DNA of 64,000 nt, from IMG/VR virus record IMGVR_UViG_3300037149_000100; one strand, 5' to 3'. Position 1 is the stretch's first letter. The number at the start of each line of letters is the position of its first letter. The notes under the pieces were generated by a model. That model worked only from the letters and a program-made list of their open reading frames with translations, was not told the DNA's origin and made no database searches. Below are positions 40,755 through 61,205 of this stretch, piece after piece. A program made the position numbers and the translations under genes. Source of the stretch: a virus.

Positions 40755-40821
40755 CTCACTCGTAGCTCAGTTGGTAGAGCTTCAGTTTGTCGGGAGTTCG
40801 AGTCTCTCCGAGTGCGTTCCA
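40755..40821 (+). ncRNA. tRNA-like RNA lacking the anticodon arm
   Basis: Acceptor CACTCG/CGAGTG, canonical D arm and T arm, only about 11 nt between them. Confidence 0.6.
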
Positions 40822-46665: not shown

Positions 46666-46739
46666 TGCGGAGTAGCTCAGTGAAAGAGCACCGGGCTTAG
46701 TTCCGGAGGTCGGTGGTTCAAGTCCATCCTCCGCAACCA
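46666..46739 (+). tRNA. tRNA with fMet-like body and a non-canonical 6-nt anticodon loop
   Basis: CCGGG-CTTAGT-TCCGG; normal D and T arms; ACCA. Confidence 0.65.
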
Positions 46740-50141: not shown

Positions 50142-50316
50142 CTCTCAGAGAGCTTTCCGGGTCGGTTTCAAAGGGGACTACCCTATGTGGACCGTAGAGG
50201 CTGCATCAGCAGAGGATGCGATCAGACAGATTGTTAAGTCAAGTAATTCAGACGGACTAAACAATTTAAGAGAAGAAGACTTGGAAGCTAAGTAATACAC
50301 ATATAGGAGGTGTCCC

Positions 50317-50977
50317 GTGGACATCATGGTAGAAATAAGAGCCGCTGAGGGAGGGGAAGATGCTGTCCTCCTCGTGCGGGATCAACTGAAGGCATATCTT
50401 CGTCGTGTGGAGCGGAGGGGACTTTAGTGCAGAATTATTGGAAGTGACGACTGGGTTTGCATCCTTCCTCGTTAGAGGTGAGGGAGCGGAGGAGTTCTTC
50501 AACGAAACTGGGGGTCATCGGTGGCAACATGTGAGTCCCACCGATAAAAACAAACGTGTTCACACCTCCACTGTTACGGTTGCAGCTTTAGCGATGCGAG
50601 CTACCTCGACCCACATGAACCCCAACGATGTGGAAATACAAACCACCAGAGGCTCTGGCCCAGGTGGGCAGAACCGAAACAAAGTGGAGAGTTGTGTCCT
50701 GGCGATTCACAAGCCAACCGGACTTTCGGTGCGGATTGATGGTCGGTCTCAATTGAATAATAAGAGGATGGCATTGCAAATCCTAGCCACCAAGCTGGAA
50801 GACCAGCACACCGAGCAGGAACAGAAACGGGTCAGCAGGGATCGCAAGGATCAAGTCGGCACCGGCCAGCGTGGCGATAAAATCCGTACCTATAGGGTCA
50901 GAGACAACATCGTCATTGACCATCGAACTGGTCAGAAATACCAGCTTTCTCGCTGGCTAGACGGAGTGAGAGAGTAA
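50317..50977 (+). CDS. Class-I release-factor-like protein (GGQ), join 50317-50424 and 50426-50977 through a +1 frameshift
   Basis: Frame 0 encodes VEIRAAEGGEDA; GGAGG-GGA-CTT-TAG site; +1 frame encodes ETGGHR, VHTS, GPGGQ, KIRTY. Confidence 0.85.
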
Positions 50978-50984
50978 GTAGTAA

Positions 50985-51056
50985 GCGGGTGTAGTTCAGT
51001 GGTAGAACGTTAGCTTCCCAAGCTAGATGTCGTGGGTTCAAGCCCCATCACCCGCT
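50985..51056 (+). tRNA. tRNA-Gly(CCC)
   Basis: GCG start, loop TTCCCAA, U73; no encoded CCA. Confidence 0.88.
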
Positions 51057-51670
51057 CAAATATGTAATTGTTGCAGTTTCTTGATGAAGTTCAGAAGCCT
51101 CTGAAGGACTTGCTCTTTTTGCTCTGCGGTTAATTTGGATGCTTCATCATTAAGCATCTGATCGGTGATATCCGTATCCCCACCGGTTTGAGCCAAGCAA
51201 AGCCAGAAGAATGCATCCGGCGCACTCTGCACCACTCCCGTGCCGGTCGCATACATCACGCCCAGGCACCCCATTGAGTAAGCCTCTCCCTGCTCTGCTG
51301 CGGCACTGAACCATTGGACTGATTGCAGAAGGTCCACCGGCCCTCCAAGCCCTAGGAACAGCATTGCCCCCAGCTTAGCCTGGGCCTCCATCTGGCCCTT
51401 CTGAGCGGCTCTGAGGAGCCACTGACGAGCTTCCGGAAGATTCTTCTCTACCTCCGAACCCAACAACAGCATGACCCCCAACTGAGCCATACTGTCTGCA
51501 TTGCCAGTCTTGGCCTGCTTTAGAGCTTCGGCTAGCCTCGCTGCCTTGACATCCTTTTCGACTGGAATTTGCTGTAAGGTAACATACGGTTGCGGGGTAG
51601 TGGGTGTGGCAGACTGACCGGCCCATAGGGATGCGGCGATAGTAAACGAGATGAGCCATTTGAGATTCAT
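51056..51670 (-). CDS. Secreted Sel1-repeat protein
   Basis: RBS AAGGAG; signal peptide; AQLG..L.G..V.K...A.QW...AAQKG repeats. Confidence 0.85.
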   Translation of the reverse strand: MNLKWLISFTIAASLWAGQSATPTTPQPYVTLQQIPVEKDVKAARLAEALKQAKTGNADSMAQLGVMLLLGSEVEKNLPEARQWLLRAAQKGQMEAQAKLGAMLFLGLGGPVDLLQSVQWFSAAAEQGEAYSMGCLGVMYATGTGVVQSAPDAFFWLCLAQTGGDTDITDQMLNDEASKLTAEQKEQVLQRLLNFIKKLQQLHI

Positions 51671-51771
51671 GTTGGTCTCCTTGGGGAGGTTTCTCAAGTA
51701 ACCCATAGTTAGTATTTTCTCAGCACAAAGCAATCTTTGCATTTCAGAGTATTATACTCACAGGAGCTAAC

Positions 51772-53092: not shown

Positions 53093-53128
53093 ACAAAGTC
53101 CTCTCAGTGAGGCAACCTATAAAAGGAG

Positions 53129-54118
53129 ATGCTAGTGAATAGCGACAAAGACGATATCAGCGAAGTCATCGGGACGGATATGAACAAGAATATGCTCAAA
53201 AGACCCCATAGGGAAGAGGTGAATGACTCTCCTGAAGGAGAGAAGAAGGACAAGCCGGTCGATGTGTCCAGTTGGGCCAACAGCGGCGTCACCTTCTTTG
53301 GTGTGGCAAAGACCTTTGCCACCCTACCCCCCAACTGCTATGAACCCAATATGAGTCAGCAAGGCCCCTACCTGGAAGAGATTCCGCTCAAGACGGACAA
53401 CCTGCTGGTGCTGCCGGATGATGCATCGAACGAGATCATCTCGGACTTTGCTGAGTTCTGGACGCTGAAGCCGCAATTCCAGGCCCGTGGGTTCCTCCAC
53501 AAGCGGGGCATTCTGATGTGGGGGCCTCCCGGTTCCGGCAAGACCAGCACTGTCCAGCAGATCATTCAGAAGGTCATCCATGACCTGGGTGGTATCGTGC
53601 TGATGGTCCAGAATCCCAGTGTGGCCGTGGAGTGCCTGAAGATGGTTCGAAAGATCGAACCTGATCGTCCTATCATCACCGTCATGGAGGATCTGGACAG
53701 CCTGATCTCCAAGTACGATGAATCTGGGTTCCTCTCTATGCTGGACGGCGAAGCTCAGGTGGACAACATTCTCAGCCTCGCCACCACCAACTATCCGGAG
53801 CGGCTAGACCCTCGCTTCATCGACCGGCCCAGCCGCTTCGATGTGGTCCGGAAGATCGACTACCCGTCCGATGAGGCCAGGGAGTTCTACCTGCGCCACA
53901 AGGAGCCCAGCCTGACCGAAGAGGAATTGGCTGCCTGGGTCGGTATGTCAAAGGGCCTGACCATTCCCCATCTGAAGGAAATGATCATCAGTGTCAAGTG
54001 CTACAACCGTGACCTGGATGAAACGGTCAAGCGTCTGAAGAAGATGCACACGAAGAAGTTCAAGGACGGCCAGGGTCTGGGCTTTGCTAGTGCGGAAGAC
54101 AAGACAGCATCACGTTAG
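53129..54118 (+). CDS. AAA ATPase
   Basis: KRGILMWGPPGSGKT, MEDLD, ATTNYPERLD..F.DRPSRFD. Confidence 0.9.
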   Translation: MLVNSDKDDISEVIGTDMNKNMLKRPHREEVNDSPEGEKKDKPVDVSSWANSGVTFFGVAKTFATLPPNCYEPNMSQQGPYLEEIPLKTDNLLVLPDDASNEIISDFAEFWTLKPQFQARGFLHKRGILMWGPPGSGKTSTVQQIIQKVIHDLGGIVLMVQNPSVAVECLKMVRKIEPDRPIITVMEDLDSLISKYDESGFLSMLDGEAQVDNILSLATTNYPERLDPRFIDRPSRFDVVRKIDYPSDEAREFYLRHKEPSLTEEELAAWVGMSKGLTIPHLKEMIISVKCYNRDLDETVKRLKKMHTKKFKDGQGLGFASAEDKTASR

Positions 54119-54124
54119 GGTAGT

Positions 54125-54598
54125 ATGCGAGAGATCATCAAATATACACCAGAAATGGCAGCAGAAGTGCGTCAGAGTCTACAGGAGTGCATTGCCCAAT
54201 TCGTGGGCTCCAGGATAACTCCAATGACTCTGACGACTCTTGAAGCTATGATCAAACAAAATGTTGAGAGGGTGTGGGATCCAGTCAAGCACTATGGCCA
54301 GCACGTAAATCTCAAGATCGAATGTGATCCGGACGACCCATCAAAGGTGCTCATATCCCCGAAGGATATGTACACGACAGTGATTCTTACCGGACAGTTT
54401 GATCGGTCGTATGATGAGATTCTGTTCCTCACCAAAGTGGTTGAGGACTATGAACATCACACCACATACGAATATGAGAACCCTGCTGGGCGCTACCTGT
54501 TCACGGTGTACCATCTCAAGATCATGGATCGTCTGACCGGAGAGGTGTATATCCTACATGAACCTGAGTCTTGGTTCTTCCCCGTGGAGATCAAATGA
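54125..54598 (+). CDS. Hypothetical protein
   Basis: 157-aa ORF following the AAA gene. Confidence 0.55.
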   Translation: MREIIKYTPEMAAEVRQSLQECIAQFVGSRITPMTLTTLEAMIKQNVERVWDPVKHYGQHVNLKIECDPDDPSKVLISPKDMYTTVILTGQFDRSYDEILFLTKVVEDYEHHTTYEYENPAGRYLFTVYHLKIMDRLTGEVYILHEPESWFFPVEIK

Positions 54599-61019: not shown

Positions 61020-61093
61020 GCAGCCGTAATTCATCGGTAGAATGGTTTGCTCTAACCAGACTTAGGCGGGTTCGACTCCTGTCGGCTGCACCA
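61020..61093 (+). tRNA. Amber-suppressor tRNA (anticodon CTA)
   Basis: GCAGCCG/CGGCTGC acceptor, ATTC/GAAT D stem, GTTTG-CTCTAAC-CAGAC, TTCGACT T loop, ACCA. Confidence 0.85.
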
Positions 61094-61205
61094 TTGTATC
61101 AAAATTCCAAGGAGGACTCGATGTCTTAGACTCGCCCACCCTAACCTGTGGTATGCCCCACTGAACCAAATCGCATCAAGCCATTTCGTCATAAGGAGAC
61201 ATATC

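Follow-up and report, generated by a model that had tools for sequence, protein, structure and literature searches.

A shortened RF1-type release factor gene in a peat-soil phage that is predicted to become whole by a +1 slip at an internal CUU-UAG

Can a phage release factor gene that is split between two reading frames by an amber codon still give rise to a complete protein, and what would such an arrangement respond to? The question is raised by a locus in the IMG/VR record IMGVR_UViG_3300037149_000100, a peat-soil phage known from a 106-kb fragment (37% complete according to CheckV), of which a stretch of 64 kb, here called the window, was analysed. The features of the locus are collected in Table 1. 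The 3' end of the first reading frame (ORF1) reads CGG AGG GGA CTT TAG and is followed by T, and the +1 frame (ORF2) is open from 50426 up to the TAA at 50975-50977, with the motifs SPT at 50534-50542 and GGQ at 50663-50671. If CTT and then AGT are read, the joined product comprises 219 aa with the junction ...RRGL/SAELL.... The pattern GGAGG-N3-CTTTAG is found once in the window, against 0.03 occurrences expected by chance, and it sits exactly on the frame junction. An earlier note on this DNA had described the ending GGAGG-GGA-CTT-TAG-T with the GGQ part continuing in the +1 frame, and this description was confirmed on the sequence. Upstream of ORF1, the preceding gene ends with a TAA in frame 0 (50293-50295), so that no RF domain 1 can be encoded ahead of it. 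Positions 1-100 of the PCRF profile had no match anywhere in the 106-kb record, and no further RF-like gene was found there. Gene callers annotate ORF2 alone, as a protein of 190 aa (P0002). As far as the layout tells, the shortened RF1-type factor can become whole only by a +1 slip at the internal CUU-UAG.

Table 1. Coordinates of the factor gene, its signals and two tRNA genes in the window
Feature	Coordinates	Strand	Remarks
Ribosome-binding site AGGAGG of ORF1	50305..50310	+	6 nt before GTG 50317; from sequence
ORF1, frame 0, 36 codons + TAG; RF1 helix-alpha5 segment (EIRAAEGGEDA...)	50317..50427	+	
Internal Shine-Dalgarno-like GGAGG	50414..50418	+	3-nt spacer (GGA) to shift codon
Shift site CTT_T; proposed re-pairing of peptidyl-tRNA-Leu from CUU to UUU	50422..50425	+	
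Amber stop TAG, frame-0 A site	50425..50427	+	
ORF2, +1 frame, 183 codons + TAA; remainder of domain 2, domains 3-4	50426..50977	+	
tRNA-Gly(CCC)	50985..51057	+	8 nt after factor stop
Amber-suppressor tRNA(CUA)	61020..61093	+	Rfam tRNA, 47.8 bits

Which release factor is encoded across the two frames? In the joined protein, Pfam places the C-terminal half of PCRF at residues 2-88 and the RF-1 hydrolase domain (PF00472, E 1.6e-25) at residues 98-203, with ORF1 and ORF2 matching the PCRF profile in order. Among the NCBIfam profiles prfA ranks first with 184 bits, followed by prfB (119) and prfH (98), each of them under its own cut-off. For prfA (TIGR00019) the score is 184.4 bits against a cut-off of 423.25, with only profile positions 113-337 covered, and for PrfH (TIGR03072) the 98 bits compare with a cut-off of 166.65. 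When aligned to solved structures, the protein follows residues 89-311 of T. maritima RF1 and remains colinear through the junction (E 1e-42), compared to E 5e-26 for RF2 and E 2e-17 for PrfH. The length of about 219 aa and the lack of domain 1 given in the earlier note thus proved right, with an unbroken and unambiguous alignment to RF1 domains 2-4. In ORF1, the glycine and the acidic residue of helix alpha5 correspond to G116 and E119 of T. thermophilus RF1, two residues with a role in reading the first stop-codon base in the RF1 termination complex. ORF1 specifies a piece of the decoding element and is no disposable leader.

Further motifs point in the same direction: helix alpha5 is followed by GG(E/D)(D/E)A as in RF1, where RF2 has GGTEA; the tripeptide is preceded by Q-x-V, with Q at position -3 as in RF1, where RF2 has V; and the HTST after the tripeptide loop matches RF1, not RF2. 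Rooted on E. coli RF2, a maximum-likelihood tree with 106 rows places the short phage factors in a single clade (SH-aLRT 96) that is nested among bacterial RF1 sequences. On these grounds the factor is classified as a domain-1-less, RF1-type class-I release factor. Bacterial RF1 (prfA, TIGR00019) is its best family match, with domains 2-4 colinear and GGQ, Q-x-x, the T of PxT and HTST all kept; it differs from bacterial RF1 by the absence of domain 1, which makes the contact to RF3 and L11, and by the recoding site that interrupts the gene. PrfH is likewise devoid of domain 1 and belongs to the same length class (PMC1586002), but it is a much weaker match than RF1, and the phage factor has retained RF1-type decoding residues. 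No match to RtcB, the protein with which PrfH is paired, was found among the five neighbouring ORFs that were scanned with Pfam.

For a view of the family, DNA was fetched and gene models were built for 80 IMG/VR loci and 80 metagenome loci. The same +1 shift is needed in 53 loci, which represent 47 distinct proteins with about 40-85% identity to that of the window. All 47 have CTT as the P-site codon, followed by TGA in 38 and by TAG in 9 cases, and TAA was not found (0/47). The base after the stop is C in 28 of the 47 relatives and T in the window. GGAGG is located exactly 3 nt upstream in 30 of the distinct relatives, the other 17 being without an exact GGAGG, and in 52 of the 53 loci the span from EIR motif to stop measures 90 nt. 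Conservation of the site in homologues, which the earlier note had named as a check, was therefore found at the same codon in 47 distinct relatives, down to about 40% identity. Pairwise diversity at the three codon positions amounts to 0.29/0.25/0.61 in frame 0 before the site (46 relatives) and to 0.52/0.38/0.71 in the +1 frame after it, a pattern which indicates that frame 0 before and frame +1 after the site are both translated. Over the last four codons of ORF1, most commonly CGG AGG GGN CTT, third-position diversity drops from about 0.5-0.75 to 0.30, 0.42, 0.47 and 0; such low synonymous diversity points to a signal at the RNA level.

The protein database contains many relatives of 170-210 residues that span only the ORF2 part of the query, as is expected from gene callers if the frame change is conserved. 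Relatives in GenBank phage records come from huge-phage genomes without annotation, and the gene was found in no cultured phage. Two contigs from other samples carry a nearly identical copy: L083 with 99.72% identity over 2862 nt and L084 with 99.59% over 978 nt, both with an identical CTT TAG T and each with its own differences from the window. The alignment between L084 and the window begins at 50305, where the ribosome-binding site of the factor gene lies; the DNA upstream is unrelated, and this position looks like a mosaic boundary at the gene start.

Why should the stop at the site be amber in this phage? TAG is scattered within the frameshifted clade and the tree requires 8 TGA/TAG changes, at least 7 of which are forced by the well-supported branches alone; on this tree the amber version is placed as a derivative of the UGA version at least seven times. 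The closest TGA relative of the window (L085, 83% protein identity) differs at the site only by TGAGTCAG versus TAGTGCAG. The earlier note had spoken of a site re-tuned to UAG, which holds only in the sense that the usual stop of the family is UGA (38/47) and that amber arose from it repeatedly. TAA is one transition away from either stop, yet none of the 47 sites has it. It would place Lys or Asn in the +1 frame, and Lys is found at this position in RF1 and RF2 of E. coli and in one other bacterial RF1. Since TAA is absent though tolerable at the protein level, the site appears to be selected for a stop that is read by one factor only; the pattern argues for selection of a stop decoded by a single release factor.

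An in-frame TGA (rarely TAG) at or near the shift position interrupts the gene in 52 further loci, and only 9 loci are uninterrupted. In the largest in-frame-TGA group the stop coincides with the codon for the conserved Trp of RF1. On the tree, a few of the in-frame forms branch within the frameshift clade, which suggests that the stop gate persists while the means of its bypass changes. A 2016 recoding review states that neither RF2 nor antizyme is known to show such a substitution (PMC5009743). Among the in-frame relatives, of which L061, L038, L046, L024 and L049 are examples, some carry two TGAs, and an in-frame TAG was noted in three loci. Recoding of TGA and leaky read-through are candidate means of bypass in these phages. 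When TGA is read as sense, the cover by long ORFs rises from 0.56 to 0.84 within one block of 20 kb (L251, G006:210000-229999) on the 310-kb contig of L061, ORF cover with TGA, TAG or TAA as sense being a strongly biased statistic.

The specificity tripeptide was placed by the earlier note between SPF of RF2 and PxT of RF1. SPT indeed occupies the RF1 position, aligning gap-free with the PAT/PVT tripeptide of RF1; what did not stand is a coupling to the amber stop. The phage family mostly has PPT, and SPT, as present in the window, was seen in this family alone. All 79 loci sampled from bacterial genomes, most of them canonical RF1, have P as the first residue; measured against PxT, the S-P-T of the window thus has P replaced by S at the first position. 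In seven independent contrasts between serine in the tripeptide and an amber stop, about two changed the same way, one the opposite way and four were unchanged, and SPT is found alongside TGA, TAG and in-frame forms. As SPT is uncoupled from the amber stop, it is no evidence for a matched change in specificity. The tripeptide alone is in any case insufficient to fix specificity (PMC5776981). In the searchable literature we found no paper on the codon specificity of an S-P-T variant. Ito et al. (2000) reportedly described Ser in the first and Thr in the third position as permissive, and no conclusion here depends on it.

The factor gene lies inside a phage tRNA island (40.4-52.4 kb), and its relatives are also found among tRNA genes. 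The tRNA(CUA) at 61020-61093 would compete for the UAG of the shift site. The tRNA islands of two other amber-type contigs were found to lack a tRNA(CUA), and so was a UGA-type near relative; one in-frame-TGA contig has one (the 310-kb contig of L061; L248, G006:40000-48000). The idea that the amber gate travels with an amber-suppressor tRNA was rejected on account of these contigs, which show no general link. TAG recoding of the genome was likewise rejected, as the standard code gives a sensible gene map over the 106 kb covered. Only one pair of same-frame ORFs is split by a TAG (53123-54598), and it has its own ATG two codons later. Downstream of the tRNA(CUA) lie an AAGGAGG and a mini-ORF of two codons, ATG TCT TAG (61122-61130). 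The gene beyond the mini-ORF starts with ATG 61206 behind its own SD and encodes a product of 222 aa without a significant Pfam family.

Several tRNAs of the phage are of unusual form. In the tRNA at 46666-46739 (Rfam 57 bits) ARAGORN draws an anticodon loop of 6 nt (CUUAGU), which becomes 8 nt when the last G-U pair is left open; Leu-UAG or a stop reader are candidate identities. Between 40411 and 52355 a number of non-class II tRNAs are 80-89 nt long (Arg-ACG 87, Ile-GAT 87, Lys-CUU 82, Gln-CUG 84, Pro-UGG 85), with an extra arm drawn by ARAGORN in Gln-CUG, and a 61-nt tRNA-like Rfam match at 40756-40816 is not called by ARAGORN. In the flank of L026, ARAGORN predicts, next to the factor gene, a tRNA whose anticodon has four bases (CCUA). 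The sole minus-strand gene of the tRNA island encodes a Sel1-repeat protein of 228 aa (51056-51742) and has a sigma-70-like promoter match (11/12) at 51778-51751.

Taking layout, family and conservation together, we consider it probable that the full protein is made only via a programmed +1 ribosomal frameshift of the prfB kind. The claim of a prfB geometry with an amber stop was borne out in that SD, 3-nt spacer, CUU_U and a stop, here TAG, are all present and the cassette is conserved; the base after the stop, T here and not the weak-termination C of prfB, counts against the reading, as do the 17 relatives without an exact GGAGG. A ribosome initiating at GTG 50317 would reach CUU in the P site with UAG in the A site, while the GGAGG 3 nt upstream would pair with the anti-SD of the translating ribosome. 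The tRNA-Leu would then slip from CUU to UUU and decoding would resume at AGU in the +1 frame, by which the alpha5 decoding helix of ORF1 would be fused to the remainder of the factor in ORF2. In E. coli CUU_UAG works as a shift site, UAG having been the stop adjacent to it in the largest mutagenesis of the RF2 site, and at sites of this kind termination and slippage inevitably compete (PMC5009743). A shift site of the CUU-UAG kind would have to respond to the speed of UAG decoding. The sensor proposed in the earlier note, with the factor made only while UAG termination is slow, stands as an inference.

What would the amber site then report? Slippage would compete with UAG decoding, so that the yield of factor is expected to fall as RF1-type activity rises. 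It would presumably also fall as the phage tRNA(CUA) rises, because frame-0 read-through is a dead end after 15 to 17 codons (a TAG follows after 15 codons, then a TGA). Candidate readers of UAG in the infected cell are the host RF1, probably the product itself, and the phage tRNA(CUA). Should UAG be read by the factor itself, for which its RF1-type decoding residues speak, the loop would be a direct negative feedback and the RF1 counterpart of RF2 autoregulation; feedback by the amber-gated factor on its own synthesis is plausible on this basis. In the UGA-gated majority the gate would report RF2 activity instead, and feedback could only be indirect, for example by the factor relieving RF2 of UAA stops. 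Against autoregulation speaks that most relatives gate an RF1-type factor with UGA, and as an RF1-type product by the usual rules does not read UGA, strict autoregulation would not be the general logic of the family.

The alternative that survives best is a constitutive attenuator: the frameshift would be real, with a fixed low yield set by a slow-codon shifty stop, and involve neither regulation nor feedback by the product. With about eight TGA/TAG interchanges on the tree, the identity of the stop could matter little, and this alternative would likewise account for the many relatives which combine an RF1-type product with a UGA presumably not read by it, as well as for the missing link between stop type and tripeptide. 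It would leave unexplained why TAA, so close in mutational terms, is never used, and why interruption is kept where the bypass differs, with in-frame stops so much more frequent than uninterrupted genes; furthermore, competition between termination and slippage is built into sites of this type (PMC5009743). We therefore regard a purely constitutive device as unlikely.

Two other readings dispense with P-site slippage at CUU, and both appear highly improbable to us. In the first, a special phage tRNA with four-base decoding, or slippage during transcription of TTT, takes up the additional base. Odd phage tRNAs such as that with the 6-nt or 8-nt anticodon loop, and the four-base anticodon in the L026 flank, lend it some colour, but no anticodon fitting CUUU or UAGU was found among the 29 tRNAs of the window, and a conserved SD at fixed spacing together with an invariant CUU_U is the signature of prfB. 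A run of three T is moreover too short for polymerase slippage. In the second, ORF2 is translated alone from an internal start (e.g. GTG 50405), giving a GGQ protein without alpha5, and ORF1 is a separate leader peptide. Gene callers do choose internal starts (P0002-P0010), but GTG 50405 is not preceded by an SD, and such starts are not conserved, the upstream readings of the +1 frame varying among relatives; ORF1, in turn, is a conserved RF1 alpha5 segment under frame-0 constraint, and the two ORFs match the PCRF profile jointly and in order. Least credible of all is a broken gene or a one-base assembly error that yields no full-length factor, which a single window would by itself leave standing and with which the lone ORF2 of the gene callers agrees, but against which speak the site shared by two independently assembled contigs that each carry SNPs of their own, a frame change that recurs at one and the same codon, together with CTT and SD, in 47 distinct relatives, and purifying selection on both frames; the assembly error that the earlier note had named as its own possible undoing is thus contradicted by L083, L084 and the 47 relatives.

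How does the programmed +1 frameshift favoured here compare with known systems? The geometry is shared with the +1 cassette of prfB (SD, 3 nt, CUU UGA C), which in E. coli reads AGGGGG-TAT-CTT-TGA-C, and the product of both genes is a class-I release factor. The prfB site, however, is located at codon 26 in domain 1, whereas the phage has it at codon 37, within domain 2 and at the position of the RF1 Trp (...RRW/TGW); the stop is UGA followed by C in prfB and UAG followed by U in the phage; and the prfB leader is dispensable, in contrast to the phage ORF1, which specifies a piece of the decoding element. The two sites are not homologous. Of the description 'RF2-style' in the earlier note the style of the cassette remains, while the factor itself is of the RF1 type and the site of separate origin. 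A 2025 survey of more than 12,000 bacterial genomes found the prfB motif in 8,164, with TAG in none of them, and no convincing frameshift in prfA (PMC12421855). Recoded phages also carry class-I release factors, RF1 in TGA-recoded Jade and RF2 in TAG-recoded Lak and Agate; these are placed with tRNA genes as well and are proposed to manage stop-codon use during infection (bioRxiv 10.1101/2021.08.26.457843). Neither a frameshift nor a stop gate is reported there for the factor genes, and the module for code change is described as being written in the standard code; the 106-kb record studied here reads well in that code. In the searchable literature we found no description of a frameshift-gated RF1-type phage factor, nor, in the searchable papers, the combination of the RF2 switch in another gene with the stop of the other factor.

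A wider reading would join the amber-gated factor, the suppressor tRNA and the gene behind the ATG-TCT-TAG leader into a phage-run switch of UAG decoding in an otherwise standard code, which we regard as doubtful. If it were true, suppressor and factor would oppose each other at every UAG, with the frameshift site showing which of them wins; a set of UAG-gated genes would be timed during infection, and S-P-T would perhaps alter or broaden the codon specificity of the factor.

For translation factors that gauge their own activity, the frameshift of RF2 is the textbook case. In large phages a device of the prfB type appears to have been rebuilt at another place in an RF1-type gene, with a stop that flips repeatedly between UGA and UAG. 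The family would thereby offer a natural matched set of UGA and UAG sensors for testing the effect of stop identity, and the amber-gated members are a candidate for an RF1 autoregulatory loop. Current gene callers truncate such interrupted factor genes. The proteins themselves constitute a compact, presumably RF3-independent family of putative release factors with the unusual tripeptides PPT, SPT and PPN, which may be of use in genetic-code engineering.
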